Below are positions 20,147 to 62,144 of a DNA stretch of 64,000 nucleotides, piece after piece. The notes beneath the pieces are model-generated. The model saw only the letters and a program-made list of their open reading frames with translations, did not search any database and had not been told where the DNA came from. The DNA lies in assembly GCA_021780535.1 (NCBI GenBank), contig JAJXYN010000009.1, forward strand, positions 303,923-367,922, written 5' to 3'. Position 1 is the first letter of the stretch. Each line of letters begins with the position of its first letter. Made by a program: the position numbers and the translations under genes. This DNA comes from a bacterium (GTDB lineage: Bacteria; Patescibacteriota; Patescibacteriia; JAGPKW01).

Positions 20147-20249
20147 ACCTTACTAATTTACAAGAAGTAGACAAACAGTAGATAAATATGCTTTACTTTT
20201 GCCTTTTTTCAAGTTAATATAATAATACAATTTAATTTGCCTAAACTAA

Positions 20250-20400
20250 TACCAACAGGTGTTGGCATGGCATAAAATCCATAACGAACAAGCTAGGTCT
20301 TCTGACTAGTATTTTTCGTTATGGTCTACATTCGAAAGGATGTAGGGCTAAACCTCGAAAGAGGCATGCCAAAATACTTTGTCGGGAGGCCTTTTTGTTT
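20250..20400 (+). ncRNA. Candidate structured RNA (unclassified): closing helix ggcatg/catgcc enclosing a 10-bp helix with nested hairpin, a ctacat/atgtag hairpin with tcGAAAgg loop and a cctc-GAAA-gagg hairpin
   Basis: Multi-helix arrangement with two GAAA tetraloops, local GC ~42% in a 25% background, no ORF, ~40 nt upstream of a small gene. Confidence 0.35.
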
Positions 20401-45900: not shown

Positions 45901-46104
45901 ATGCAAAAAAACATGGGAACGTTAGATAAAATAATTAGATTAATTCTAGCTATAATATTTATAGTACTTTATTTTACTAATATAGCTACTGGAGTACTAG
46001 GAATTATATTATTAGTATTAGCAGCTGTGTTTGTATTAACAAGTATTGTTGGATTTTGCCCACTATATATAATATTTAAAATAAATACTAACTCAAAAAA
46101 ATAA
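45901..46104 (+). CDS. DUF2892 (YgaP-like) small membrane protein
   Basis: LDKIIRLILAI...GFCPLY. Confidence 0.55.
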   Translation: MQKNMGTLDKIIRLILAIIFIVLYFTNIATGVLGIILLVLAAVFVLTSIVGFCPLYIIFKINTNSKK

Positions 46105-46148
46105 GCATAAACTAAAAATCTCATGGAATTAACCATGAGATTTTTAGT

Positions 46149-47438
46149 TTATTTTTTTTGACTTATATATTTTTTCGCTGAAGTTGCAGATACCGCGCCC
46201 ATAGCTTCTGCTACTACTATTTGTTTTAAATCTGAAAATCCGGTCGTAATATCTCCTGCCGCATAAACACCTTCTAGATTTGTTTTACAATTTTGATCTA
46301 TTTTAATAAATCCAGAATCATTTTTTTCTATTCCTAATTTTTCAAGTAAAGCATCATTTGGGATCGTTCCTATTTCTATAAATAAACCATCTATTTTTAA
46401 TTTATTGCTTCCATTATATTCTTTGTCTAATATTATTTCTTCTACGATATTGCTTCCTTGTATTTCCAAAACATTAGATGAAGATATTAGATGGATATTG
46501 TGTCTCTTTTTTACTTCTTCTTTTAAAGCTTCATCTTTTGCTGAAAATTCTTCTTTTCTATAAATTAAATAAACATCAGTGGAAACATCACTCAAATGCA
46601 AAGCTCCTGTTAACGCTGCATCACCAGCACCAAGAACTGCTACTACTTTATCTTGATAAAACATCCCATCACATATAGTGCAATATGATATCCCTTTTCC
46701 TGAAAATTCTGATTCGCCTTTAATCCCAGCTTTTCTTTTTTCTGTGCCCAAAGCTATTATTAAACTTTTACCTTTATAATGCCTATTGCCGTCTGTTATT
46801 ATTTTAAAAATACCATTATCATCTTTTTCTATTTGTTTAACCACATCCATAACGTGCTCACATTGATCATATTTTTTGAAATGCTGTAATAATTTTTGAG
46901 ATAATTCCGACCCTTCTATATTTGGCAAGGCTGGATAATTATCTACTAAATGCGTCTTTGCAACCATTCCTCCTATTTCTCCACCTATAACAACATTGCT
47001 CATATTATATCTACTTGCATATATAGATGCTGTTGCACCTGCCGGACCAGATCCTATTATAATTGTATCAAATATTTTTTCATTACTAACTATGTCTTCT
47101 TTAATTTCTACACCCATTAAAGCTATATTTTTCAATATATCCTCTTTATTTATATAGCCTAATAATCTTTGACCAATTTCAACTCCATTTTTATAGAATA
47201 ATAAAGTTGGTGAACTCATTACATTTAGACTCATTGCTAGATCTTTATTTTCTTGTCTAAATATTTTTGTAAATAATATTTTACTTCCATAACGCTTTGA
47301 TAATTCTATATATTTTTCAGCCAATGCCTCACAAGGTGGGCATTCTGTTGAATAAAAATCAATTATTACGTTTTCATTATTTTTAATAATATCGTAAAAT
47401 TCATCTTTATTTATATGTATTATTTCTTCTTTATTCAT
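46149..47438 (-). CDS. Thioredoxin–thioredoxin reductase fusion protein
   Basis: N-terminal Trx (STECPPCE), then TrxB FAD site IIIGSGPAGATAS and redox-active CTICDG, NADPH site AVLGAGDAA. Confidence 0.85.
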   Translation of the reverse strand: MNKEEIIHINKDEFYDIIKNNENVIIDFYSTECPPCEALAEKYIELSKRYGSKILFTKIFRQENKDLAMSLNVMSSPTLLFYKNGVEIGQRLLGYINKEDILKNIALMGVEIKEDIVSNEKIFDTIIIGSGPAGATASIYASRYNMSNVVIGGEIGGMVAKTHLVDNYPALPNIEGSELSQKLLQHFKKYDQCEHVMDVVKQIEKDDNGIFKIITDGNRHYKGKSLIIALGTEKRKAGIKGESEFSGKGISYCTICDGMFYQDKVVAVLGAGDAALTGALHLSDVSTDVYLIYRKEEFSAKDEALKEEVKKRHNIHLISSSNVLEIQGSNIVEEIILDKEYNGSNKLKIDGLFIEIGTIPNDALLEKLGIEKNDSGFIKIDQNCKTNLEGVYAAGDITTGFSDLKQIVVAEAMGAVSATSAKKYISQKK

Positions 47439-48540
47439 TTGTTTTATTAATACTTAATTTATTTGGTAACCAAAAAGATATTGGTATTTGAACTAGATAT
47501 GACAAGACTATTACTATTATTATTTGAGAATAAACCTGATTTTGATAAATTAATGATGTTGAGAAACCTAAGGCTAGCGTTATATATCTTAAATAATTTC
47601 CCCATATTAAAGCTTTTGTTTCTGCAGTTTTATTCTTTTTAAATATAAATAAATTTATTGATAAGATTGTTGCGTAAAATATAATTACTGGAATTATTGA
47701 TTTTAATAACAAATCTGGCTTTTCAAAAATTATTATATTTTGTTTCATCCCCATTAAAAAGAATAGTGTAAAAAACATACCTATATTACTTATTCCCGAA
47801 AAAATTATTTTTGATTTTTCAAATTTATTTTCTTGTAATATTTTCTTTAAAATTTTTTGAGTTGTAAAAGCTAGACCAAGTGGTATTAAAACTATTATTA
47901 ATATTGGGATAGCTATTTGCACAGCACGTATTGAATGACTATTACCAAAAGAGCAAGATAATGTATTGTTTGTAGCCTTAGATATTAAACAACCACCTGT
48001 ATGATTTGTTGCTTGTATCCCTTGATAAAAATTATCAAATTTTGGTTGTCCGATCTGAGTATTTATGTTTCCAACAAATGTATTTATAAAAAATGATAGG
48101 AATATTGGAACTAACACAACGGCAGTTAATAAATTTGCGACTATTATTCCAACAGTTACTACTAAATCTGACTTTGTTTTTTGTGCCCAAGAAACAACCA
48201 TTCCACCGCCTGGTAATATAGATAATAAGAATAATCCTAAAAATAATACTGGATAATCTCTTAAGAATAGATACCCAACTAAAAATCCTATTAATGGTAT
48301 CATTACGAAATTTAATAATATTGATATTATTATTATATTTTTATGTTTGTAAATATCTTTTAATTTACTAAAATCTAAAGACACGAGAGATGGATATATC
48401 ATTGTTAAAGCTGCAAAAATACACACTAAAACACTAAACTCAAAACCACCTAAAAATCTAGCAAATAATATCCCTGAAAAAATACTTAGCAAAATTAAAA
48501 AAAATAAATTTTTTTGTATAAATTTAAAAATCTTTTCCAT
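47431..48540 (-). CDS. BASS/ACR3-like (SBF family) transporter with Cys-rich central insert
   Basis: MIYPSLVSLDFSKLKD and LFLLSILPGGGMVVSW resemble ACR3/BASS motifs (no APCTAM Cys); 8-nt overlap with trx-trxB. Confidence 0.45.
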   Translation of the reverse strand: MEKIFKFIQKNLFFLILLSIFSGILFARFLGGFEFSVLVCIFAALTMIYPSLVSLDFSKLKDIYKHKNIIIISILLNFVMIPLIGFLVGYLFLRDYPVLFLGLFLLSILPGGGMVVSWAQKTKSDLVVTVGIIVANLLTAVVLVPIFLSFFINTFVGNINTQIGQPKFDNFYQGIQATNHTGGCLISKATNNTLSCSFGNSHSIRAVQIAIPILIIVLIPLGLAFTTQKILKKILQENKFEKSKIIFSGISNIGMFFTLFFLMGMKQNIIIFEKPDLLLKSIIPVIIFYATILSINLFIFKKNKTAETKALIWGNYLRYITLALGFSTSLIYQNQVYSQIIIVIVLSYLVQIPISFWLPNKLSINKTNE

Positions 48541-48585
48541 TTTTTGTATTATTTAACCTTACTAATTTAATAAAAATGTTTATAC

Positions 48586-48613
48586 ATTATATCACAGGGG
48601 TGGGGGGTGTCAA
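48586..48613 (-). promoter_or_regulatory. Consensus sigma-70 promoter (TTGACA-N16-TATAAT on minus strand) with poly-C spacer CCCCCCACCCCTGTGA
   Basis: Exact hexamers; same architecture at 53743..53770. Confidence 0.6.
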
Positions 48614-48648
48614 GAGTGTTATAAAAACTGCAAAAAATAATATTAAAA

Positions 48649-49869
48649 TTATTTTTTTACTATGTCTTTTATAAGAAAACCTATTAATGAAGATGCTATC
48701 GCTGCTAATATTAATATATATTTAAAATCGTAAGGAATAAATATTATAAATATAGTTGATAAAACTAAAATAAAACTCCTACCTAAAAAATTAGACATTA
48801 TTCTCATAACAACATACTCATCTATTAGATCTCCTTTGTTTCTTGCTCCCTCATAAAAACGAGAGTCTCTTGGTATTCTTAATATTGGCTCTACAATGTT
48901 TTGATATGTTGAAGCTACAAATAATTGTAAATTTGTTAGTGATAAAATTTTCCATATCCAACCTAATCCATAAAGAATTCCTCCAAGTTTTGCAATTTTT
49001 GATTTGCTTTTTATATCTGTTAACTTACCAACTAAAGAATTTACTATCAATGAAGCTAATAAAACCAATGATACTAATATACCAATAGAATTTATATCGT
49101 TTTTCATAAGAATGAATATAATTATTGGCCATATTGTTATTTTTATACCCATTTCTGCTCCTTCAGAAAATCCTATAAAAAAATTTCTTATATATCTTTT
49201 TGAAAATATGTTTTTGAATGTTTCTATAAAACCAAATGAATATTGTTGCTTTGTATCATTCATTTTTAATAATGGGAATATAGATATAATATAAATCAAA
49301 ACTGCTAATATAAAAAGAATATTAAATCCTATTTTATCTATAATCAATGATGCTATAAATGGTAATGCAACTCCTACTATTGATAATATATTTCTAATTC
49401 TACCAATTTGTGAACCTCTTTTGCTTTGATCTGTAAACAATGATATGTCCACATGATACCCTATCCAATAAAAAGATCTTGCTACTACCATTGTAATTAA
49501 ATACAAAACAATTGCTATGGTTGTATTAAAATCAAAAATTAAAAATGTGCCATAATTAAGCATAAAAAATATACTACCTATTATTATGGAATTTTTTATA
49601 CCTATTTTACCTAATGCTTTTGCCCCAAAAATAAGTCCAAATATAGATAATATGCTATCTATAGAAAAAAGTATAAAAATATATAATAATGATAGATCTA
49701 ATTTTTGATAAATAAATATTACAGAAAACATAACTAACATTGAATCTGCTATAGCTTGTATAGCTGTGGACAAGGACAATGATAGTAAATCTTTACTGAA
49801 TAAATTTATTTTATTTATATTTTTAACTTTTTCCATTTGTGTAGTTTTATTAGTTAATAAGTATATCAT
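48649..49869 (-). CDS. MFS-type transporter
   Basis: 12 predicted TM helices, 406 aa. Confidence 0.5.
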   Translation of the reverse strand: MIYLLTNKTTQMEKVKNINKINLFSKDLLSLSLSTAIQAIADSMLVMFSVIFIYQKLDLSLLYIFILFSIDSILSIFGLIFGAKALGKIGIKNSIIIGSIFFMLNYGTFLIFDFNTTIAIVLYLITMVVARSFYWIGYHVDISLFTDQSKRGSQIGRIRNILSIVGVALPFIASLIIDKIGFNILFILAVLIYIISIFPLLKMNDTKQQYSFGFIETFKNIFSKRYIRNFFIGFSEGAEMGIKITIWPIIIFILMKNDINSIGILVSLVLLASLIVNSLVGKLTDIKSKSKIAKLGGILYGLGWIWKILSLTNLQLFVASTYQNIVEPILRIPRDSRFYEGARNKGDLIDEYVVMRIMSNFLGRSFILVLSTIFIIFIPYDFKYILILAAIASSLIGFLIKDIVKK

Positions 49870-49936
49870 AAATTTATTTTATTTTTTATACTACAAAAAT
49901 AAAAAACACTTAGTTATATAAGTGTTTTTTTATTAT

Positions 49937-50356
49937 TTAGTAATTTACTTGATTATATCCTCTTCCGAAACCGCCACCCATTCCACATCCACCACCATTA
50001 CCTCTGCCCATAAAACTGTTTGTAGAAGTTCTAAGCCCTAATTCAGCTCTTATTTTATCTGCTTCTGCTGTTTTTCCTTCTAAGCCTAACTTATTAGCTT
50101 CTGCAAATTTTGCAAAATTATCTTTATTTATTACAGATAAAACTCTTCTTCCCATATTTGTTTTTTCCATTTCTGTTTTCCATGCTTCATAATTATTTGT
50201 AGCAAAAGCGTTTTGCATTATTGTATGTCTTTCTGTTGTATAGTTTGGTCCTTGTTTTGTGTAATTGCCTTGATAAGCAAATGCATTAGATGTTGCCATA
50301 AAAACAGAAACTAAACCAATGACTAAAGCTGGTAATACTAAATTTACTTTTTTCAT
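49937..50356 (-). CDS. Secreted protein with Gly-rich C-terminus
   Basis: Signal peptide; GRGNGGGCGMGGGFGRG tail. Confidence 0.4.
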   Translation of the reverse strand: MKKVNLVLPALVIGLVSVFMATSNAFAYQGNYTKQGPNYTTERHTIMQNAFATNNYEAWKTEMEKTNMGRRVLSVINKDNFAKFAEANKLGLEGKTAEADKIRAELGLRTSTNSFMGRGNGGGCGMGGGFGRGYNQVNY

Positions 50357-50532
50357 ATAATTTTATTATTAAATTAATTAAATAAGAAATAGCTATTTTC
50401 TTTCTCACTAGGTAATACATTTAAAAAAATAATTTCTTTCATTTTTAATTTTATAATTAAGATTATGAATATTGAAATAAATTATAATTTTAATTGTATT
50501 ACTTTGTATAATAATTATATTAATAATATAGC

Positions 50533-51252
50533 ATGAAAAAAAATTTTTTGTTTGTATTTTCTCTAGTTTTTATTTTACCTAATATATCCATGGCTGATGT
50601 TAGTTCTAACATAGCAACAAACACCGCTGAGCCAACTGCTATAAATTCTACTGATATTGTTGAATTAACTGGAAAAGAAATTAAAGGTAAGACCGTTGCT
50701 GAAGTTGCCGATTATTATAAAATAAACTCGGATGCTCTTGCTACAAAATTAAGTGATTATTTAAAAGTAAATATAAAACCTTCTGAAAGTTTTCAATTAT
50801 TACATGACAACTATGGTCTTGAGCCTAGTTTTGTTAGTGATTTAGCGAAAGAAATAAAAAATTCTAATAACATTACGACAACTTCTTCTGTTGAAAGTGT
50901 TATAGAAAAACAAAAAATATCAGACGAAATTGCTCCTGAAAAAAATTATTTTGTCTTACAAGTATCTAGTTCTTTAATATTGTTATATATAATTACTTTT
51001 GTATTAGCAAAGAAAAAAATAATTTCAGAAATACTACATAAAAAAATATGGAATAACATTCTTCTTTTTGTTTTTCTAGGAATGGGAATATTAGGATTAT
51101 TGCTAGCTGTCAGAATTCAATACGGGGTTAAAACAATACTACCTTTTAATATGTTATTTTGGCATGTTGAATTTGGAATTACTATGGCTATAATATCTAT
51201 ATTTCATGTATTGTGGCATATAAAATATTATATAAATATTAAAAATAAATAA
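50533..51252 (+). CDS. Secreted/membrane protein (signal peptide, C-terminal TM helices)
   Basis: ORF and hydrophobicity only. Confidence 0.4.
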   Translation: MKKNFLFVFSLVFILPNISMADVSSNIATNTAEPTAINSTDIVELTGKEIKGKTVAEVADYYKINSDALATKLSDYLKVNIKPSESFQLLHDNYGLEPSFVSDLAKEIKNSNNITTTSSVESVIEKQKISDEIAPEKNYFVLQVSSSLILLYIITFVLAKKKIISEILHKKIWNNILLFVFLGMGILGLLLAVRIQYGVKTILPFNMLFWHVEFGITMAIISIFHVLWHIKYYINIKNK

Positions 51253-51280
51253 AAAATTGTCATCAAAAGATGACAATTTT

Positions 51281-51472
51281 TTATTTTACAAATACTTTAG
51301 AAACCCACTCTCCATCACCTATTCTATACCAACCATTATTTTCCTCAAATACTACTACTTCTGCACCTTTTGATAATTTTTTTATGGCCTTATCTTTTAT
51401 TGATGGGTTATCACGAACATTAACATTGTTTGATGTTATCTTTCCTTTTAATAAAATTGTTTTAGCTCCCAT
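51281..51472 (-). CDS. Small SH3b-domain protein (start trimmed to internal Met to avoid overlap with upstream gene)
   Basis: GKITSNNVNVRDNPS...GAEVVVFEENNGWYRIGDGEWVSKVFV is a bacterial SH3 pattern. Confidence 0.4.
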   Translation of the reverse strand: MGAKTILLKGKITSNNVNVRDNPSIKDKAIKKLSKGAEVVVFEENNGWYRIGDGEWVSKVFVK

Positions 51473-51521
51473 TAACAAAGGAAGTGTGCGAACTGGCTCA
51501 ACAAAAAATTGTCCTGGTAGA

Positions 51522-52364
51522 TTATACCCACAAGATGCACTTCCACCACCATCTGCTTGTAATTGATGCTCTACTGGTATGCCGGCTATAATTAATGCAT
51601 GCATTACTTGCCTCTTTTTCCGTAGCTAATTGACTGCAATAAACTACTAATTCTTTCCCATCATTAGATACACCCAAAAATAAACGAGAAGTTGCTGTAC
51701 CATCATCATTTTTTGTTACATTTGGAGAAAATCCTTCTAGTGCCTGATCTCCTGTTTTATTATCTATAAATTCAGATGAATCAAAGTCTTTAACTAATGC
51801 AACACCATCTTTATTGTTAATAATAAGCATGCGTCTAGCCCTTGCCATGTCTGGAACAGAACGACTTCCACTTGTTATTGTTGTTTTTCCATTAATGGAG
51901 TATTTTACTGCCATACTTAAATCTGTAGAATTTGGCTTCATATTAAAAAATGCTGCATCCCAAATAAATTTTATTCCTGCGTCTATTGATTTTGATTGTT
52001 CTGACCCTATTCTTTTAAAAGACAGGTTATGATAATCATTTATATCTAATGACGTTGTATTAATTTTTTCATTAGAAAACGGTTTTGATTCTAATACATT
52101 TAAATCTTGTGGCTCACCTGCCCCAAATATAAAATTAATTTGATTTTGTGGCAGATAAATACGAGTCAAAAAATCAACCGCACCATTTTCTTTTGGTGCT
52201 TTAAAATATGAACTTATTCCAGGAGCATTAACCCATGTTATTATAGAAAAACCTTCCGGTGTGATTGGCGCATAAACTGGTTTTTCTTGAATTTTTGATG
52301 CTAAAACTGGCGTTGCTATTATTAATGTTAAAATTACTAAAAAATTTGTGAAAATTTTTTTCAT
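51522..52364 (-). CDS. Secreted hypothetical protein
   Basis: Signal peptide MKKIFTNFLVILTLIIATPVLA. Confidence 0.4.
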   Translation of the reverse strand: MKKIFTNFLVILTLIIATPVLASKIQEKPVYAPITPEGFSIITWVNAPGISSYFKAPKENGAVDFLTRIYLPQNQINFIFGAGEPQDLNVLESKPFSNEKINTTSLDINDYHNLSFKRIGSEQSKSIDAGIKFIWDAAFFNMKPNSTDLSMAVKYSINGKTTITSGSRSVPDMARARRMLIINNKDGVALVKDFDSSEFIDNKTGDQALEGFSPNVTKNDDGTATSRLFLGVSNDGKELVVYCSQLATEKEASNACINYSRHTSRASITSRWWWKCILWV

Positions 52365-52503
52365 TGAAGTAAATAAATGAACTTACTTATTATATTTTAT
52401 ATTATAGATAAAAAAACATATTAATACTAGATAATTTTTGTTACTATATTTACATTTTAGCGTTATAATATATGTAGAAATATATAAACTTTAATTAAAT
52501 GAT

Positions 52504-53076
52504 ATGAATCATAAAAAATTTATAGGAATTATACTGATTAGTTTTGTTAGTTTAATTATTATAATTACCATTCCTGTTGTTTATTTTTTATCAAGTAGGA
52601 ATAATAATTTAAAATTACCAAATAATACTCCTATTGAAAATAGTAAAAATCAAATAACTGAAACTAAAACATCTGTTGAATATAATAATAAAGAATATGG
52701 TTTTATTTTTTCTTTACCAAATGATTGGAATAATTATTCAATAGTGGAAGGAAAATGGACTGGAAATAGCATTAATTCTAGTGGTTCACAAAATATTGGC
52801 ACAGAAGAAGGCCCAATGATTTCTATCAGAAACCCTAAATGGACAACTAATGAACCAATGCAAGATATTCCAATTATGATTTTTACAAATAAACAATGGG
52901 ATTCACTTAAAAAAGATGAATTTCATATAGGAGCAGCCCCTATTAATCCAAGCGAACTTAATCACAATACAAACTATGTTTTTGCATTGCCGGCTAGATA
53001 TAATTTTGCTTTTCCAAAAGGATTTGAAGAAGTAGAGCAAATTTTGCAAAATAAACCGTTAGGCGTAATTAATTAA
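52504..53076 (+). CDS. Membrane-anchored hypothetical protein
   Basis: N-terminal TM; ORF only. Confidence 0.4.
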   Translation: MNHKKFIGIILISFVSLIIIITIPVVYFLSSRNNNLKLPNNTPIENSKNQITETKTSVEYNNKEYGFIFSLPNDWNNYSIVEGKWTGNSINSSGSQNIGTEEGPMISIRNPKWTTNEPMQDIPIMIFTNKQWDSLKKDEFHIGAAPINPSELNHNTNYVFALPARYNFAFPKGFEEVEQILQNKPLGVIN

Positions 53077-53128
53077 TTTAATCTAATTAAAAAATCACCA
53101 CAAAACAATGTGATGATTTTTTTGTAAA

Positions 53129-53452
53129 TTATAAAGATTTTTTTAATTCTTGACTAAACACGTTTGCTGGTCTAAATCCTATAAAATCTTCTACAACTTT
53201 TCCATTTTTAAACAATTTCATATTTGGGATACTCATAATGTTGTATTCCATTGCAAGCATTCCATTGTCTCCATTTTCAGTATCTATTTTACAAATTTTT
53301 AATTTACCTTCAAATTCTTTTGATAATTCCTCAAGAACTGGAGCCATCATTCTACAAGGACCACACCAAGGTGCCCAAAAATCTACTAAAACTGGCAAAT
53401 CTGATTTTAATACTTCTTGTTCAAAATCTGATTTATTTATATCTTTTGGCAT
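53129..53452 (-). CDS. trxA: Thioredoxin
   Basis: [13 protein letters not shown] active site. Confidence 0.9.
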
Positions 53453-53466
53453 ATTTTGTAATATTA

Positions 53467-53727
53467 TTAATTATTATTTAAATTTTTTAAAAGCTTTTTA
53501 AAAGCTCCTTTATCTAGGTTTTTATTAACAAAACAATTATCTAATTCTTCTTCTATTATTTTATTCATAATAGACAACATTGCTGATCTTACTGATTTCA
53601 TTTGAATCAACAAATCTTCGCAATTGTTTTTGTCATCTAGCATTTTTGAAATGCCGTTTAATTGCCCGATGACATTATTTATTCTTTGTTTGTATGATTT
53701 TTCTGGCATTTTATTTGTTTTTATCAA
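53467..53727 (-). CDS. CsoR/RcnR-family repressor with Cys-x29-Cys and Glu in place of His (CstR-like signature)
   Basis: NNCEDLL...EEELDNC; spacing matches CsoR C36/C65 but position -4 is Glu not His. Confidence 0.65.
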
Positions 53728-53742
53728 TAAAAATCTTTTTTT

Positions 53743-53770
53743 ATTATATCACGGGGGGGTGGGGTGTCAA
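53743..53770 (-). promoter_or_regulatory. Consensus sigma-70 promoter (TTGACA-N16-TATAAT) with poly-C spacer CCCCACCCCCCCGTGA, 15 nt upstream of the CstR-like gene
   Basis: 28-bp block conserved with 48586..48613. Confidence 0.6.
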
Positions 53771-53836
53771 GAGCTTTTAAGAAAATACTTCACTCTATTT
53801 GAAATATTTTCTTTTTCATGGTTGTATTAGTTATAT

Positions 53837-54412
53837 ATGGATATCAATTTGGAAGAAAAATCCGACATAGAACTTGTTAGGTTATCCATCTTAAATCAAG
53901 ATGATTATGTTTTTATTATTAATAAATATGAAAACAAAATAGAAAGATACTTAAAAAGATTGGGAGATCTAAGAAATGAGGATATAGAAGATCTATTGCA
54001 AGATATTTTTTTAAAAGTTTATAAAAATTTAAATAATTTTAACCCTGAATTAAAATTTTCATCTTGGATATATAGAATAGCTCACAATGAAGCTATAAAT
54101 AAATTTAAAAGAAATAGAAATGTTAATTTAAATTTTGATGATATTGATTATTTTATAAATAAAATATCTGATTGTGTTGATTGTAATAAAGAAAATATAA
54201 GTAACAATATAGATAATAGTTTTTTGAAAGATAAAATTCAAACAACTTTGAGTAAAATGAATATTAAATATAGAGAAGTATTGATGTTAAAATTTATTGA
54301 AGATAAAGATTATAACGAAATATCTGATATTATTAAAAAACCTATCGGGACTGTTGGAACATTAATAAATAGAGCAAAAAAACAATTTAAAGAATTATAT
54401 GAATATAAATAA
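53837..54412 (+). CDS. ECF-type sigma factor
   Basis: Region 2 (DIFLKVYKNLNNF...WIYRIAHNEAINKFKR) and region 4 HTH. Confidence 0.7.
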   Translation: MDINLEEKSDIELVRLSILNQDDYVFIINKYENKIERYLKRLGDLRNEDIEDLLQDIFLKVYKNLNNFNPELKFSSWIYRIAHNEAINKFKRNRNVNLNFDDIDYFINKISDCVDCNKENISNNIDNSFLKDKIQTTLSKMNIKYREVLMLKFIEDKDYNEISDIIKKPIGTVGTLINRAKKQFKELYEYK

Positions 54413-55127
54413 TTTTTTACAAAAAATTAAAAAAGAAAAACCTACTCCAAAATGGATATTTATATCTAAAAGTATTTTATTTTGGACAATGTTTGTTTTA
54501 TTTGTATTTATTGGCGTTGTATCTATTTCTCTCATTATATACTCTTTGTTTAATAGTGATTTTAATATAAATAATACTAACCTTGAATTACAAATAAAAT
54601 TTATATTTAATTCTTTACCTTATGTGTGGATTATTATAACTGCATTATTTTTTGTTGTTTCTTATTTAAATATTAGAAAAACTGAAAATGCTTATAAATT
54701 TTTAAGTATGAAAAATATACTATTAGCATTAGTCGTTACATTTGTTTTAGCTATTGTTTTTTATAATATTGGTTTTTCTAAATTTTTAGATAAAAATTTA
54801 CAAGAAAATATTCCTGTATATAAAAATTATATGAGCCAACATATGTTTGATGTTTGGAATAATCCTGACGAAGGATTATTAATTGGAAAAATAAAAGAAA
54901 TTACAACAAATAATCAAATAATATTAGATACTTACGACCAAAAAGAATGGATTATAAATACCAATGAAAACACTACAATCAGAGGAAGAGTTGAGATATC
55001 TATTGGAAGTGGAATAAAAATTATTGGGACAAAAACTGGAAATAACACTTTTGAGGCTCAAGAAATTAGACCAGAAATGGGAATGATGATGCAAAACAAT
55101 CAAATGATGAACATGATGAATAATTAA
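54399..55127 (+). CDS. Membrane protein overlapping ECF sigma gene (putative anti-sigma)
   Basis: 14-nt overlap; 3 TM helices. Confidence 0.4.
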   Translation: MNINNFLQKIKKEKPTPKWIFISKSILFWTMFVLFVFIGVVSISLIIYSLFNSDFNINNTNLELQIKFIFNSLPYVWIIITALFFVVSYLNIRKTENAYKFLSMKNILLALVVTFVLAIVFYNIGFSKFLDKNLQENIPVYKNYMSQHMFDVWNNPDEGLLIGKIKEITTNNQIILDTYDQKEWIINTNENTTIRGRVEISIGSGIKIIGTKTGNNTFEAQEIRPEMGMMMQNNQMMNMMNN

Positions 55128-55130
55128 TAA

Positions 55131-56504
55131 TTATTCTTTAGATTCAACATGTATTACAACTCTTTTTATTTCTGAAACTTTTTCTTTCAATAAATATTCA
55201 AATTTCATAGTTATATCATGAATTTTTTCTAAAGATATATTATGCTGAGCCAGACAATGAAACGATACAAATAATTTTTCTTCTATTCTTCTTATTAATA
55301 TATTATGGGGCTCACAAATTTCTTCAATAGTTTTGTCTATTTCACTTATAGCATCCTTAACCCTTTTTTGTTCTTCTTTTGTTATGTTAGAACTTAAAAT
55401 TGCATGTTTTTTTAATGGCTCAATGTGTGAATTTAATTCCGTATTGTCTTCAACTTCGTTTTTTATTGATTTTTCAAAATTAGTAGCAATATCATGAGCT
55501 TCTTTTATTGTTAAATCATCTGGCAATTCTAAATCGTAACTTATATATTGTTTATTATCTAAATTATCTACAATAACATCATGAACAGAAAAGCCATTTT
55601 TTAAAGCTAGCGCACGTATTGATTCTACTATTGTTTCATCATTTGACTTTACTGGTTTAATATTAATAACAATATCTGCTTCTTTGATTTCTTTTTTTAT
55701 TTCTACTTCTATGTTTTGAGAGATTTCATGAACTTTATCAATTGATAGTTTATGATTTACAACTATAATTAATTCTATAGACAAATTAGACCCAAGATGT
55801 CTCACTCTAATTCTTTCAATATCTATAATATAATCTATTTTTTTTACAATTTCTTTAATCTTTTCTAAAACTCCAGATGGAGTACCGTCAACTAAAACAT
55901 CTATTGTTTTTTTACCTAAACGATAAGCTGCTAAAAAAACAAATATAGAAACACCCATTGCGGCAATAGTATCCGCTCCTCTTATCCCAAATAATATAAA
56001 AACTAAACCAAGCAACACTACTCCTGAACTTAAAATATCAGAACTAAAATGCAATGCATCAGCTTCAAGCGCTTGGCTATTTGTTTCTTTTGCTATTTTT
56101 TTAAGAGCTCTTGATCTTGAAATATCTATAATCATAGACAACACAACAACCACAAAAGCATACCAAGTTGCTTTCACTTCAATATCACCAACTATTAATT
56201 TATGGACTGATTCGTAAATAATCCAAAAACCAGTAATAAACAACAATCCTGTTTCAATAAGTGCAGAAATACTTTCAATTTTACCATGCCCATAATTATG
56301 ATCTTCATCTGCTGGTTTATCTCCTACTTTAACAGCAAAAAATGTCATAACCGCCGCTGCTAAATCAAGTAATGAATGAACAGCTTCTGAAAGAATACCC
56401 ATACTTCCAGTTAATACTCCTACTATAAATTTGGTTGTTGTTAAAATAACACCGGCTACAACAGAACTTATAGCAACTAATTCTTTTTTATTTTTCATAA
56501 ACAA
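55131..56504 (-). CDS. Cation diffusion facilitator (CDF) family metal efflux protein with extended C-terminal domain
   Basis: HSLLDLAAAVMTFFAV...DEDHNYGHGKIESISALIE; six TM helices. Confidence 0.85.
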   Translation of the reverse strand: MFMKNKKELVAISSVVAGVILTTTKFIVGVLTGSMGILSEAVHSLLDLAAAVMTFFAVKVGDKPADEDHNYGHGKIESISALIETGLLFITGFWIIYESVHKLIVGDIEVKATWYAFVVVVLSMIIDISRSRALKKIAKETNSQALEADALHFSSDILSSGVVLLGLVFILFGIRGADTIAAMGVSIFVFLAAYRLGKKTIDVLVDGTPSGVLEKIKEIVKKIDYIIDIERIRVRHLGSNLSIELIIVVNHKLSIDKVHEISQNIEVEIKKEIKEADIVINIKPVKSNDETIVESIRALALKNGFSVHDVIVDNLDNKQYISYDLELPDDLTIKEAHDIATNFEKSIKNEVEDNTELNSHIEPLKKHAILSSNITKEEQKRVKDAISEIDKTIEEICEPHNILIRRIEEKLFVSFHCLAQHNISLEKIHDITMKFEYLLKEKVSEIKRVVIHVESKE

Positions 56505-56594
56505 ACTTTTTTGTTAAACAATAAATCTAATTAGTATAAAGTATAGCTATTTAATGTCAATAAAAACACCACTCATCTAAAGAGTGGCATTTTA

Positions 56595-59500
56595 TTATTT
56601 AATTATATTAACAATGTCAGATTTTATAAAATGTAAATTATCAAGAACTGTATTAGTTTTAGGTAATACTCCTTTTACTATCACATCTACTCCCAAAAAT
56701 TTAACAATATCACCAATATTATTAAATTCTTTTTCTTTTTTCATATTATTACCTTCCGTATAGCCATAATATATAGATTTATAAGTTTTACCATCTATAG
56801 AAATATCTGAAAAATCAATATTAGTTAATTTATTATTATATTCTTTTGGGATATTATTATTTACTAGATATGTCCATTCTCCACCATCATCTGTTTTAAA
56901 ATTTTTTATAATACTATCTGAACTTGTAGATAAATATTTATTAACTTCTTGAGTTATGTCTTGGTTCATAGAAACTTCTTTTTTATTCATTTCTAACGAA
57001 CTAAACTTAGCAAATGAAATAAATAAGAATGTGAATATTATTATCATTAAAAACACAGTCATGTTAGATAATATATTTTTCTTATTAGGTTTGAATGTTT
57101 TTAAAAGTAATGAACTAGATACAACAGAAACTGAACTTAGAGCCATAGATATCCCTGCAAGCTCTGGAGCTAATACCAAACCAAATCCAGCAAATACTCT
57201 AGCAGCAATTGGGATGCCTATTACATTATAAAACAATGCAAAAAACATATTTTGTTTTATCTTCCACATTGTTTGTTTTGAAAGATTAATAGCAGTTATA
57301 ACATCATTTAAATCATTTTTCATTATAACTATACTACCAGCCTCTATAGCTACATCAGTACCAGATCCCATAACTATTCCTAAATCTGATTGAGCAAGTG
57401 CTGGAGCATCATTAATACCATCTCCAACCATAGCGACTTTTTTACCTGTTGCTTGTAATTTTTTAACTTCGCTTGCTTTATCTTCTGGAAGAACTTCTGC
57501 TAAAACGTTTTTTATACCCAATTCTTTTGCTATAGCTATTGCCGTTCTTTGATTATCTCCAGTAATCATATAAACATCAATACCCATTTTATTTAGTTTT
57601 TTTATAGCATCTTTTGATGTTTCTTTTAACGTATCAGCAACAGCAATAACGCCTATAATATCAGTTTCTGAAGATAAAATCATAACAGTTTTACCTTCTT
57701 CTTCTAATTTATTTATTTTTCTATTCAAAGAAGTGGTTAAAAAACTTTCCGTGCCACAAACTTCTAATATTTTTCTATTACCAAAAAAATACTTTATATT
57801 TTGTATAACTCCAGATATTCCATGGCCAGGTATGGCTGTAAACTCTGAAACATTTTCCAAATCAATACCCTCATCTTTTGCATAACTATATATAGCTTCA
57901 GCAAGAGAGTGTTCGGAATTTTTTTCAAGAGAACTTGCTATAAATAATATTTCATCTTCACCAAAGTTTTTAAAATCTAATATATCTGTAACAACAGGTT
58001 TTCCGTTTGTTAATGTTCCTGTTTTGTCAAAAACTATAGCATTAATTTTCTCTGCCATCTCAAGTGGCTCACCACCTTTAATTAAAATACCATTTTCCGC
58101 ACCTTTACCAGTTCCAACCATTATTGCTGTTGGAGTAGCAAGACCAAGTGCACAAGGGCAAGCTATTACTATAACCGATGTAAGCGCCATCAAAGAGAAA
58201 GATAAACTAGCACCTAAAAAGAAAAACCAAACTATAAATGTTATAACAGCAAGACCAATAACAATAGGAACGAATACCGCTGATATTCTATCCGCAAAGG
58301 ATTGTATTTGAGATTTAGAACCTTGAGCATCTTCTATTAATTGTATAATTCTAAACAATACTGTGTCTGACCCAACTTTTGTGGCCTCTAATTCAAATGA
58401 ACCGTGTTTATTAATAGTGGATCCAATAACTTTGTCTCCAATATTTTTTTCAACAGGAATACTTTCTCCTGTTATCATAGATTCATCAACAGAAGAATTG
58501 CCATTAACCAAAACACCGTCAACTGGTATTTTTTCTCCAGGGCGAACTAATATAATATCCCCCACTTGAACTTCTTCTATTGGGACATCTCTAGTTGCTC
58601 CACTAACTCTATCAGTTATTAATCTTGCTGTTTTGGCCTGCAATCCTATTAATTTAGATATGGCGTCCGAAGTTTTATTTTTAGTTTTAGCTTCAAGCCA
58701 TTTACCAAGAATAACAAAAGTAATTAAAAATGAAGATGTTTCAAAATATAATTCTGGAATTTTTCCTCCATTTAAACCAATTATAGAGTTATTTGTCGTA
58801 ATGAAATATATGAAATTAACAATACTATAAATATATGCGACCGATGTTCCTATTGATACCAAGCTATCCATGTTAAAAGTTTTCATACGAAGACCAGAAA
58901 TAAATCCTTTATAGAAACCTCTCCCGATAATAAATTGTATTGGTGTTGCTAATATTAAAGAAATTATTCCAAAATATGGTGGCAAATTATTTGCTCCTGG
59001 TAAAAATTTAAAGAAATCTAAGAACATAAAATATAACATTGGCAAACTCAATATAAAAGCAAATAAAAATTTATTAAACATGCTTTTAATTTCTTTTTCT
59101 TTATTTTTCTTTTCTTCTTCTGAATTACTAGTAGTTAATAATGTTGCACCATAGCCAGCTTTTTTAATAGCACTCAAAACATCATTAACAGAGGTTACAT
59201 TTTCATCAAACATAACAGATGCTTTTTCACTAGCAAAACTAACATTAGATTGTTTAATTCCATTTAACTTTTTTACTGACCTATCTATAATATTAGCACA
59301 AGAAGCACAATGCATACCCTTAACAACAACATCTATTTTTTTATTATTATTTGATATTGCTTGCACCGATGAATGATTGTCGTTCCCTACTGTGTTAATT
59401 ATATTTTGTTTTTCATTATTATTAAAAATATTTTGAAAGTTCAATATTTGAGAAATGTCTTTAATAATATTAATGTTCTTACTATTTTCTGGACCATCAA

Positions 59501-59891
59501 GATTAATTGTTTTATTATTTTTTATCTTGCCATCAAAATATGGGTTACCATTTTTATCTCTCAATATTTTACCCTCACCTTCAATATTATTTTCTAATCT
59601 AAATTTTAAATTATTTTTTTCATTAGAAAATAATTTTGAATTTTCTTGTACTGGTGAGATTAATTGTTCTTTTTCAATAATACTATCAACAATGTAATTT
59701 TCTTTCTCTATCACACTTACTATATCATTTGATAAAATTAGATCATTAAATATTTTAATAGTGGCATCGCCGGTATTACTATTTATTTGTATTTCAGCTG
59801 TATTATCTAACTCTAAAATAACTTCCTTTATAATTTGCTCGCAAGCAGAACAATGCATACCTTTAATTTTTAAGACGAATTCTCTACTCAT
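56595..59891 (-). CDS. copA: Copper-translocating P1B-type ATPase with two N-terminal HMA domains and ~200-aa C-terminal extension
   Basis: MHCSACEQ and [11 protein letters not shown] motifs, [27 protein letters not shown]. Confidence 0.9.
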
Positions 59892-59902
59892 TATTTATTT
59901 AA

Positions 59903-60115
59903 TTAATTTTTAAAATCTAATACTTTATATTCTGTCCCTAATAAGGCTGATTCAATTTGATCTAATTTAATATCTTTATTAGAAATAATATTTCCTGTAC
60001 CGTCAACATTAATACTAATTCCAGAAACACCATCAATTGTAGATAATTTTCTAGAGATTATTTTTGTACAAGATTGACAATGAACATTTGAAAATTTAAT
60101 ATCAATTTTTTTCAT
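59903..60115 (-). CDS. copZ: Copper chaperone (HMA domain)
   Basis: VHCQSCTKII CxxC in a 70-aa ferredoxin-like HMA protein. Confidence 0.75.
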   Translation of the reverse strand: MKKIDIKFSNVHCQSCTKIISRKLSTIDGVSGISINVDGTGNIISNKDIKLDQIESALLGTEYKVLDFKN

Positions 60116-60116
60116 A

Positions 60117-61592
60117 TTAATTAAAGTTAATAGTAAAATTATACATTCCCATACTACATGTTCCTGAAAGTACAGAACCTACTGCTTGATTTCCTAAATC
60201 TGTAAAAATAGAAGAATTAGTTGGAACTCTGCCACTATATCCAATACTTGGGATGTTTACACCATGAGAACAATCATATCCACTACCTCCATCAAATTCT
60301 ATTTGTGTTGGAACGCCAGCTTTGGCATTTGTTGTAGATGGAGAATAACCACTATCAACTTTAATTTTTATAATTTGTTTACCATTTACCTCTGTAACAT
60401 TATCTGTAATATTACTAGAAGTATTATTATTGTTGTTATTGTTATTATTTAAAGTACAAGCAGGAGAAGTAGAATCCACAGAACATGCTGATTGATTATT
60501 TTGAACATTATTTATTTTAAAACCACCAACAAGCATTAAATTATATCCATTATTCAAATCAAACAAAGCAAATGCTACAACAGCTATACCCGCAACTTTA
60601 AAAAATATTCCGGAGAACTTACCTTTTATAAACGAAGTTAATCCACCCACACCTAACAATCCTGGAGCTGTTCCTAAAGCAAATAAAGCCATAATTATTC
60701 CACCAGAAAAAAATCCACCAGAAGAAACAGCATACAATTGCATTGCTTGAGTAAAGCCACAAGGCAAAAAGAACGTTAAAGCACCCAAAAGCATAGTGCC
60801 CCTATGAGAATATTGTTTTTCATCAGTTATGCCAAAAAATCTAGAAATACTTTTTGGTAAAGTAAATTTAAATTTAGAAATGAAAGGAAAAATATTTAAC
60901 AATTGAGCTCCTAGTAATAGCATAAAAATACCAACACCTATAGTTAAAATACCTGTTAATGAAATAGATATTTTAAAAGCAGACCCAACCAATCCCAACA
61001 CACCGCCTAACATAAAAAATCCTAAAATTCTTCCAAGGTTAAAAAATACATGAGGAATAAATTTTTGCTTAGCCGTTAAGTTTGGATGTTTTTCAGAAAA
61101 CTTAGTAGATACCCCCATAATTAATCCTCCGACTAATGCCATACAACTTGAAACTCCGGCAGTTAATCCTACTAATATAGCCGTTGACCAAGAAACTGAG
61201 CTAGATGATACATTAACAGCAAAAAGTTTATCTAACTTTAATAAGCCAAAAAGTATATATAAAGTTAAGAAAATAATTCCAGCGGTTAGTAACTCTGTAT
61301 AATCAGTTTTGTTTTTTGAAAATATTTTATTATCATCATTATCACTATTTTTATTTATTTTTTCAAATTCTTCTTCATTAATTTTTTCTAAAATATCATA
61401 TCCCATTACTTTTAAATCTTTTTTTATTTCCTGCTCATTTGGTTCTTTATCTTTATAGTAAATTTCTGCAATACCTGTTTTACAATTAACATTTATTTTT
61501 TCTACATGATGAGAATTTTTTAATTTATCCTCAATAAGAATCTCACAAGATTTGCAATGCATTCCTGAAATTTTATAAACTACTTTTTGCAT
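60117..61592 (-). CDS. HMA-domain + CcdA/cycZ-like membrane domain protein (copper-tolerance type) with extra C-terminal extracytoplasmic domain
   Basis: N-terminal MHCKSCE HMA; TM domain with SSCMAL and FFLPCGFTQA Cys motifs; Asn-run linker then ~110-aa domain. Confidence 0.6.
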   Translation of the reverse strand: MQKVVYKISGMHCKSCEILIEDKLKNSHHVEKINVNCKTGIAEIYYKDKEPNEQEIKKDLKVMGYDILEKINEEEFEKINKNSDNDDNKIFSKNKTDYTELLTAGIIFLTLYILFGLLKLDKLFAVNVSSSSVSWSTAILVGLTAGVSSCMALVGGLIMGVSTKFSEKHPNLTAKQKFIPHVFFNLGRILGFFMLGGVLGLVGSAFKISISLTGILTIGVGIFMLLLGAQLLNIFPFISKFKFTLPKSISRFFGITDEKQYSHRGTMLLGALTFFLPCGFTQAMQLYAVSSGGFFSGGIIMALFALGTAPGLLGVGGLTSFIKGKFSGIFFKVAGIAVVAFALFDLNNGYNLMLVGGFKINNVQNNQSACSVDSTSPACTLNNNNNNNNNTSSNITDNVTEVNGKQIIKIKVDSGYSPSTTNAKAGVPTQIEFDGGSGYDCSHGVNIPSIGYSGRVPTNSSIFTDLGNQAVGSVLSGTCSMGMYNFTINFN

Positions 61593-61648: not shown

Positions 61649-61667
61649 TATACCTGGGGGGTAGGTA
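61649..61667. promoter_or_regulatory. CsoR-type operator candidate 1 (ATACCT-GGGGGGT-AGGTAT)
   Basis: 6-bp inverted arms around G-tract. Confidence 0.5.
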
Positions 61668-61751
61668 TGTAAATAATTATACTCCTATAAAAAAAGAAGT
61701 CAAACATATTGTGAATACTGATTTATAATATATTTTTTTATAGTTATACAC

Positions 61752-61770
61752 ATACCTCCCATATAGGTAT
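61752..61770. promoter_or_regulatory. CsoR-type operator candidate 2 (ATACCT-CCCATAT-AGGTAT)
   Basis: Same arms. Confidence 0.5.
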
Positions 61771-61825: not shown

Positions 61826-61842
61826 TACCCCCTATATGGGTA
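61826..61842. promoter_or_regulatory. CsoR-type operator candidate 3 (TACCC-CCTATAT-GGGTA)
   Basis: Related inverted repeat 24 nt upstream of csoR. Confidence 0.5.
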
Positions 61843-61865: not shown

Positions 61866-62144
61866 ATGAGCCAAGCATTAGAAAATAAAAAAAAATCATT
61901 AATAGCATTAAAAAAAGCTAATACAATGATTGGGAAAATTATAAAAATGGTGGATGATAATGAATACTGCATAGACATTATGCAACAAAATCTAGCAACA
62001 ATAGGACTTTTGAAATCTGTTCATGAAAAATTAATGGAAGGACATTTAAACTCTTGTGTTAAAAATGCATTAGCATCAAAAAACGAAAATTTAAAACAAA
62101 AAATGATTGATGAAATTATAAAAGTTAGTAAATATAATAAATAA
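61866..62144 (+). CDS. csoR: Copper-sensing CsoR repressor (canonical Tyr-Cys ... His-x3-Cys)
   Basis: EYCIDI ... MEGHLNSC: C-x24-H-x3-C spacing of Cu(I)-CsoR. Confidence 0.75.
   Translation: MSQALENKKKSLIALKKANTMIGKIIKMVDDNEYCIDIMQQNLATIGLLKSVHEKLMEGHLNSCVKNALASKNENLKQKMIDEIIKVSKYNK

Follow-up and report, generated by a model that had tools for sequence, protein, structure and literature searches.

The window analysed here, 64,000 nt of contig JAJXYN010000009.1 from a member of the Patescibacteria, carries two minus strand promoters whose spacers are filled with C-tracts in DNA of only about 26% G+C. One lies ahead of genes for a transporter and a thioredoxin-thioredoxin reductase (Trx-TrxR) fusion, the other ahead of a gene for a small regulator of the CsoR family, and the locus raises the question of whether this regulator acts at both, and in response to what. 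A first-pass annotation, made from the sequence alone, had proposed a persulfide-sensing protein similar to CstR. The results given below suggest that the regulator, here called the C-E-C protein after its Cys-Glu-Cys triad, is probably a CstR-like dithiol repressor that controls a thioredoxin system.

Site 1 (48586..48613; minus strand 48613..48586, TTGACACCCCCCACCCCTGTGATATAAT) has the structure TTGACA-CCCCCCACCCCTGTGA-TATAAT, and site 2 (53743..53770; minus strand 53770..53743, TTGACACCCCACCCCCCCGTGATATAAT) the structure TTGACA-CCCCACCCCCCCGTGA-TATAAT. At both promoters the spacer is 16 nt with an extended -10 TG, CTC directly precedes the TTGACA, and the core of the embedded candidate operator is CAC-N11-GTG enclosing two C-tracts. 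Site 1 is 45 nt from the start codon of the transporter gene, and has the same sequence as the autoregulatory site in a relative (locus L008). Perfect matches to TTGACA-N15-19-TATAAT were found twice in the 64 kb, exactly at the two sites, compared to a mean of 0.39 in shuffled sequences, in which two or more matches occurred in 5 of 100 shuffles. The core (CACCCC-N3-CCCC-N-GTG) matched only these sites in the window even when 2 mismatches were tolerated (expected, 0.01), the 28-nt pattern gave no match across 100 shuffles, and a listing of all G/C runs of at least 4 nt placed a double C-tract nowhere else in the window. The two sites are real, and far beyond chance; the coordinates of these promoters and the conservation of the block between them, as first annotated, were verified.

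Both leaders also carry the sequence ATTTTTATT(A/G)A about 8 nt 3′ of the -10 box (48565..48578 and 53722..53735, minus strand), and AGATTTTTAT is kept at the same leader position in several relatives. The shared leader sequence could be a second cis element, an AT-rich chance similarity, or a trace of promoter duplication. Neither operon has an RNA element nearby according to scans with Rfam models and for tRNA genes.

The gene behind site 2 (53467..53709, minus strand) encodes a predicted CsoR-family repressor of 80 aa, with a PF02583 match of 62.5 bits over residues 10-79 (cutoff 22.8; E = 4.9e-17). The family assignment agrees with the initial annotation, which had placed the start at TTG 53727, giving 86 aa. 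Just some 16 nt separate that codon from the -10 box, whereas translation from ATG 53709 gives a product identical to database protein P0001, and the orthologues share this start position, so the gene is taken to be 53467..53709 and the TTG is the less likely start.

The residue pattern of the protein sets it apart from the copper sensors of the family. An alignment shows C30, E55 and C59 to be invariant in the clade, as expected from the triad noted earlier. E55 aligns with the Cu-ligand His of CsoRs and with N55 of Streptococcus pneumoniae CstR (SpCstR; 7MQ1), and N29 stands where Cu-sensing CsoRs have a Tyr before the first Cys. The triad therefore gives the fingerprint x-C-x-C (two Cys, no His at position Y), by which, along with genomic context, CstR clusters have been defined (Fakhoury et al., PMC8643695). 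The features of Cu(I)-CsoRs, i.e., x-C-H-C with a second-shell Tyr and adjacency to copA/copZ, are not seen. RcnR and InrS (H-C-H-H or H-C-H-C) were considered and rejected, as the protein has a His neither at W nor at Y and matches the RcnR model with just 36.3 bits (cutoff 138). Among solved structures, SpCstR is the closest, both for the single sequence (E = 8.1e-8, versus 1.5e-7 for Geobacillus CsoR, 4M1P) and for the family profile (47.3 bits, versus 38.9 for the best Cu-CsoR, again that of Geobacillus), the margin being modest, though clearer for the profile. With C30, N55 and C59 of SpCstR at the same positions, the proposed similarity to CstR was upheld at the level of the protein.

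A profile search retrieved 530 family members, of which the best 120 were inspected, each about 80 aa in length. The C-E-C pattern is present in 106 of these 120, and their source names, where given, are Patescibacteria group or Falkowbacteria, most being without a name. The nearest representatives of clusters at 50% identity are mostly C-N-C, C-E-C, C-Q-C or C-S-C, and C-H-C becomes dominant only further out. One orthologue, P0006 (L005, L020), carries a further, vicinal Cys (NCCEDLL) and so has three thiols per protomer. The contig that encodes it, CAZHKK010000015.1, bears the label 'uncultured Gammaproteobacteria' yet has 24% G+C and Patescibacteria-like genes, and is probably mis-binned.

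A thioredoxin gene, trxA (53129..53452, minus strand), begins 14 nt past the regulator gene and is predicted to be co-transcribed with it. The product has the active site WCGPC and matches TIGR01068 (115.1 bits, cutoff 96.8) as well as PF00085. A word-indexed search found six relatives of the regulator at 72-75% identity in full-length alignment, and the gene neighbourhoods of 11 distinct regulators could be read (P0001, P0002, P0003, P0006, P0007, P0076, P0077, P0086, P0098, P0103 and P0113). In all 11, a thioredoxin gene lies directly downstream of the regulator gene and a G/C-tract block lies inside the promoter. All relatives down to about 57% identity carry a block of the window type, e.g., TTGACACCCTCCACCCCTGTGTTATAAT, CCCCCTACCCCTGTGATATAAT, CCCTCCTCCCCTGTGATATAAT and CCCCCTCCCCCTGTGATATAAT, and the 28-bp block is retained while the flanking DNA has diverged. 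That the regulator gene is linked to the block in each of these 11 orthologues is what autoregulation would be expected to leave, and site 2 would then be an autoregulatory promoter. On this comparative evidence, the C-E-C protein very probably binds both sites of the window.

In more distant orthologues (47-52% identity; L043-L045) the operator takes another form. At the identical promoter position these have TTGACACCCCATAGGGGTATATGCTAAGAT, TTGACACCCCCCAGGGGTGTATGCTATTAT and TTGACACCCCCTGGGGGTATGCTATAAT, pseudo-palindromes of the type ACACCCC-N3-GGGGTGT that belong to the classical type-2 CsoR/CstR kind. They resemble the cst operator (ATATACCCTTATGGGGTATAT; palindromic type ATATACCC-N-GGGGTATAT; PMC8643695) and the Streptomyces CsoR consensus (ATATACCCCTNAGGGGTATAT). 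Both this palindrome and the presence of the block in every orthologous csoR-like/trxA promoter examined bear out the view that the C-tract blocks are operators. A further argument made at the outset did not hold. G/C-tract operators were said to mark the RcnR/FrmR/CstR branch, but they are shared by the CsoR/RcnR family as a whole, and known CstR sites are palindromic and of type 2, unlike the all-C tract seen here.

The two forms of operator, palindromic (ACACCCCCCAGGGGTGT) and window-type (ACACCCCCCACCCCTGT), can be related base by base. Up to and including TTGACACCCCCCA, site 1 matches the site of L044; it then has CCCC instead of GGGG, and TGT follows in both. The clade of the window has thus retained the geometry and the ACA...TGT dyad, with the strand polarity of one tract flipped. 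Readout of the A-form-like shape of G/C tracts has been proposed for the CsoR family, and a flip of one half-site would be compatible with it.

The same motif was sought beyond the window, giving 9 loci in a genome collection and 17 in metagenomes. In relatives it was found only before csoR-like/trxA genes, and a site of the transporter type was found only in this genome. Seven of the 9 genome loci are on G+C-rich or mid-G+C contigs of Chloroflexota, Binatia and Elusimicrobia that show no CsoR gene, and were set aside as chance or unrelated promoters. Likewise without a CsoR gene, and also set aside, are 11 of the 17 metagenome loci, which belong to a single Dehalococcoidia-like repeated promoter block, and L025, another unrelated promoter. 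The repeated block, TTGACACCCTTTACCCCAGTGTTATAAT with conserved upstream sequence, occurs in L015, L022, L023, L026-L028, L030-L033, L035 and L036 (two copies in L027), on Dehalococcoidia-like contigs of about 45-49% G+C, where it precedes a 100-aa Cys-containing open reading frame (ORF; MLPLAARDVYEEIL...). The block resembles a multicopy or mobile element and is unrelated to CsoR.

The operon behind site 1 consists of two genes that overlap by 8 nt, and is closed by a bidirectional hairpin with a 20-bp stem that resembles an intrinsic terminator (46107..46152). The upstream gene (47431..48540, minus strand) encodes a transporter of the SBF fold (BASS/ACR3 superfamily; PF01758, 77.2 bits, cutoff 24.3). 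The downstream gene (46149..47438, minus strand) encodes a 429-aa fusion of a thioredoxin domain (CPPC; PF00085, residues 6-105) and a TrxR-like flavoenzyme (CTIC; PF07992, residues 123-414), which matches the TrxB model TIGR01292 over its full length at 301.7 bits, just under the cutoff of 343.45. NADPH-dependent thioredoxin reductases carry the motif HRRxxxR; in the fusion, this position of the reductase domain reads YRKEEFS, and CTIC stands in place of the usual CATC. These differences suggest that the electron donor of the fusion may be other than NADPH. A 67-aa gene of the YgaP-like_TM family (PF11127; motif GFCPLY; 45901..46104, plus strand) is convergent with the fusion gene and shares its terminator.

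Gene order and superfamily of this operon were as first described, but the transporter is not a true ACR3. The match to the ACR3 model TIGR00832 reaches 79.7 (cutoff 282.8), and covers part of the model only. Compared with the annotated ACR3 of pSinA, RCIAM of transmembrane segment (TM) 4 is replaced by PGGGM (Cys to Gly) and LVEVP of TM9 by LVQIP (Glu to Gln), two residues that are essential for arsenite transport by ACR3 (PMC9671657). Both replacements are invariant across the Patescibacteria transporter family, and since the catalytic Cys and Glu are missing, the label 'ACR3/arsenic resistance protein' given to the family by annotation pipelines is probably wrong. The family itself, with homologues at 38-50% identity that are common in Patescibacteria, is Patescibacteria-specific. 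Its invariant features are C40, a C184-x11-C196 loop and LPGGGM; the loop is probably extracytoplasmic, judged from the distribution of positive charges. No sequence match to the transporter was found in the PDB.

In other Patescibacteria the transporter is part of a module with TrxR and thioredoxin (L040, 3824..7671; L041, 2860..6766; L042, 4051..6725; L046, 2..2092). None of five loci with transporter homologues has a CsoR-type operator upstream, so the evidence for the transporter arm of the regulon comes from this genome. In three of the five (L040-L042) the module is headed by an 87-aa regulator of the ArsR/HTH_5 type with vicinal Cys (ECCVGEL), and a perfect palindrome (TATATCAATATAAATTGATATA) precedes the ArsR-headed modules; the regulator is not on the truncated contig of L046. 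A 298-aa YgaP-like_TM protein is encoded in L040 and L041, with a C-terminal fragment in L046, of which the 67-aa protein of the window could be a relic or a shortened version. Next in the module comes the same Trx-TrxR fusion in L040, or a rhodanese carrying a CAGGGRS loop in L041. Given ArsR-type control elsewhere, and a C-tract motif found in relatives only before csoR-like/trxA genes, an old thiol-redox module seems to have passed from ArsR-type control to that of a CsoR-type operator in the lineage of the window.

The window encodes a second member of the CsoR family, which bears on the question of metal sensing. This protein (61866..62144, plus strand) has 92 aa and the canonical Y-C..H..C pattern (EYCIDIM...EGHLNSC), and shares 31% identity with the C-E-C protein. 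Its best PDB match is Geobacillus CsoR (E = 4.9e-9), with no CstR among the matches. It is divergent from a metal cluster (55131..61592, minus strand) encoding an HMA-DsbD_2 fusion, a CopZ-like HMA protein, a P1B-ATPase of 1098 aa with two HMA matches (CopA-like) and a cation diffusion facilitator (CDF) transporter in which ZT_dimer domains are repeated. Two candidate operators, ATACCT-N7-AGGTAT (61650..61668 and 61752..61770), lie in the divergent intergenic region, and a third, TACCC-N7-GGGTA, is at 61826..61842; these sites stand ahead of the metal cluster. The TAC-N11-GTA geometry of two of the three parallels the CAC-N11-GTG of the C-E-C operators, and a C-tract operator of the C-E-C type is absent from the P1B-ATPase/HMA region. 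Copper or heavy metal sensing thus seems to be served already by the 92-aa CsoR with its own operators, leaving the C-E-C protein as the non-metal paralogue. This is the strongest argument against metal sensing by the C-E-C protein, and a precedent is found in Staphylococcus aureus, where CsoR and CstR coexist with distinct operators (PMC8643695).

A mechanism can be proposed from these features. The reduced tetramer would sit on the G/C-tract operator, fill the spacer and overlap the -35 box, and so exclude RNA polymerase from two near-ideal promoters of the sigma-70 type. SpCstR senses through C30 and C59′ of the neighbouring protomer, with N55 as a wedge between them. By analogy, thiol stress (persulfides, polysulfides or other thiol oxidants) would bridge C30 to C59′ in the C-E-C protein, with E55 at the wedge position between the two Cys, and the DNA would be released. 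A switch of this kind, operated by Cys oxidation, is the favoured explanation of the conserved dithiol. The operon of the repressor itself (regulator and TrxA) would be derepressed and, in this genome, the SBF transporter and Trx-TrxR fusion as well. The induced thioredoxin system would then remove oxidised sulfur species and presumably re-reduce the repressor, a negative feedback loop suggested by the universal co-transcription of trxA in the 11 orthologues.

Several observations weigh against such a CstR-like repressor. The operator of the window clade is not palindromic, both tracts being C on one strand, and an all-C two-tract form is absent from those characterised CsoR-family operators that could be compared. 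The conserved Glu between the two Cys could be part of a metal or metalloid site. Genome and metagenome scans found the transporter-operon site in this genome only, and the view of the regulon covers 64 kb of the source genome. Finally, no rhodanese, persulfide dioxygenase (PDO), sulfide:quinone reductase (SQR) or CoA-persulfide reductase (CoAPR) is encoded in the two operons, or was found among ORFs of at least 110 aa scanned over 34-64 kb of the window.

The lack of these four enzymes in the two operons removes the parallel, drawn at the outset, with the staphylococcal cst operon, and the orthologous regulator loci likewise have trxA only, with no cst-type neighbours. Regulation of a TauE-type transporter was also claimed, but the transporter behind site 1 belongs to the SBF family and the TauE/SafE gene of the window (PF01925; 37906..38703, minus strand) has no C-tract operator upstream. 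Both results bear on the nature of the inducer. A strict sensor of persulfide or other reactive sulfur species, functionally orthologous to CstR, would join C30 to C59′ through a di-, tri- or tetrasulfide bridge, with the thioredoxin and Trx-TrxR as depersulfidases and the transporter moving a sulfur compound. The x-C-x-C fingerprint of the C-E-C protein and the closeness of SpCstR fit this, as do the rhodanese, with a C-X4-R loop of the sulfurtransferase type, and the YgaP-like proteins in the modules of other Patescibacteria, and the short YgaP-like gene abutting the transporter operon. Set against the missing sulfur genes and the TauE gene without an operator, however, strict persulfide specificity is a tentative proposal and on balance doubtful. 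The conserved core is regulator plus thioredoxin, as in disulfide-stress regulons such as those of Spx and SigR-RsrA, of which thioredoxin is the classic content. CstRs themselves discriminate poorly in vitro, H2O2 being only 3-5 times slower to react with them than cysteine persulfide, and this reactivity, a regulon with a pure thioredoxin system and the lack of regulated sulfur-oxidation genes all speak for a general thiol oxidant as the signal. Of the initial proposal of a reactive-sulfur or thiol regulon rather than a metal regulon, the non-metal part is well supported, while specificity for persulfide is not a property that can be read from the sequence.

The remaining explanations are less probable than either kind of thiol sensor. 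A thiophilic metal or metalloid, such as As(III), Sb(III), Cd or Cu(I), could be bound at a Cys2(Glu) site, with the transporter as an efflux pump and the thioredoxin serving, e.g., arsenate reduction; the ACR3 label, the ArsR/SmtB-type regulators of other modules, whose vicinal Cys occupy the alpha-3 metal-box position, the three thiols of P0006 and the presence of metal-resistance genes 1.4-8 kb away could all be read this way. Nevertheless, this is unlikely, as the transporter lacks the TM4 Cys and TM9 Glu and falls far under the ACR3 cutoff, neither the two operons nor the ORFs of at least 110 aa across 34-64 kb yielded an arsenate reductase, the Cu-ligand His and preceding Tyr are absent, a canonical CsoR already serves the metal cluster, and the universally conserved partner is thioredoxin and not a pump. 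It is more improbable still that the C-tracts are promoter architecture, or the site of another factor, unbound by the CsoR-like protein and alike through duplication of a strong promoter. TTGACA and TGnTATAAT are promoter elements by themselves, the shared flanks of the two sites (CTC upstream and the leader sequence downstream) would fit duplication of a cassette, and promoters with C-rich spacers but no adjacent CsoR gene exist in unrelated genomes richer in G+C. Against this stand tracts kept across orthologues with diverged flanks, a canonical CsoR-family palindrome in the spacer of distant orthologues, the strict linkage to the regulator gene, and the extreme rarity of G/C tracts in DNA of this composition. 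Least probable of all is an FrmR-type sensor of formaldehyde or other electrophiles, in which Pro2 would be cross-linked to the first Cys. The protein of the window does start with MPEK and has that Cys, and there is a weak NCBIfam match to FrmR (32.6 bits, cutoff 133), but Pro2 is not conserved (orthologues start with MSEK or MKT), the His at position Y is absent, and no formaldehyde dehydrogenase is among the regulated genes.

Other features of the window lie close to these genes or apart from them. Divergent from the csoR-like gene are genes for an extracytoplasmic function (ECF) sigma factor and a membrane protein, a putative anti-sigma factor (53837..55127, plus strand). Similar sigma pairs are found just upstream of thiol-redox modules in L008 (5416..6727), L040 (2710..3698) and L041 (1..1079), and the linkage of the two may be a recurring one. 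At 51281..52364 (minus strand), ORFs of 280 and 107 aa in different frames overlap by 83 nt in a region that is locally richer in G+C, and may represent a single gene that is frameshifted or mis-assembled. A match to LOOT RNA (RF03000; 67.4 bits, over the gathering score) lies at 20238..20354 (plus strand).

Regulation and stress sensing are largely uncharted in Patescibacteria (also known as CPR, the Candidate Phyla Radiation), because few are cultured. Literature searches turned up no account of a thioredoxin-coupled regulator of the CsoR family, nor of any CsoR-family regulator in Patescibacteria. The distinguishing features here are, as far as the comparisons reach, a clade of dithiol CsoR proteins with a Glu wedge, its phylum-wide spread, a thioredoxin regulon, and a same-strand C-tract operator in one subclade. 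In its widest form, the C-E-C protein could be a Patescibacteria-wide, thioredoxin-coupled redox switch and the chief regulator of thiol stress in these reduced genomes, with the operator flip reflecting shape readout and the transporter module captured in the lineage of the window; this extension is speculative. The compact unit of regulator, thioredoxin and operator offers a model for thiol or sulfur stress sensing in minimal cells that is tractable in vitro, and it would widen the repertoire of dithiol CsoRs to a Glu wedge and a regulon outside sulfur oxidation. Palindromic and same-strand C-tract operators provide a clean test of shape versus base readout in CsoR-DNA recognition, and the flip, if true, would be a natural experiment showing that the family reads the shape of G/C tracts and not their bases. 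The 'arsenic resistance/ACR3' label is widespread on the transporter family despite the absent catalytic residues.

Among known systems, the closest are the CstRs of S. aureus, Enterococcus faecalis and S. pneumoniae (SPD_0073, 7MQ1). They share with the C-E-C protein the PF02583 family, the x-C-x-C fingerprint and identical sensing positions, and also, as seen in S. aureus, the presence alongside of a Cu-CsoR with operators of its own. The orthologues at 47-52% identity have palindromic operators resembling that of cst. They differ in having, in SpCstR, Asn instead of Glu at the wedge (Y), and in a regulon of rhodanese, PDO, SQR, CoAPR and TauE instead of a thioredoxin system and an SBF transporter. 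Further differences are the co-transcription of the C-E-C gene with trxA, the same-strand C-tracts of the window-clade operator in place of a C-tract/G-tract palindrome, and the position of the C-E-C protein in a separate and apparently Patescibacteria-wide clade. The Cu(I)-CsoRs of Mycobacterium tuberculosis, Bacillus subtilis, Streptomyces lividans and Geobacillus (4M1P) have in common with it the family, Cys at X and Z, and G/C-tract operators with a short dyad; the C-E-C protein is without the His at Y, the Tyr before the first Cys and a copA/copZ target.

The type-1 operator of RcnR and FrmR (TACT-G6-N-AGTA) resembles the window sites in having a G/C tract on a single strand, bordered by a short inverted repeat, suggesting readout of an A-form-like shape. 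In the window there are, however, two tracts totalling 11-12 nt, with the 11-nt dyad spacing typical of type 2, and the C-E-C protein lacks the H-C-H-H and P-C-H-x fingerprints of these regulators. In logic, the proposed circuit matches those of Spx, SigR-RsrA and OxyR, in which a Cys switch induces trx genes and thioredoxin resets the switch. The folds are unrelated, and those proteins are activators or an anti-sigma factor, whereas the C-E-C protein is proposed to be a repressor that acts by occluding the promoter.

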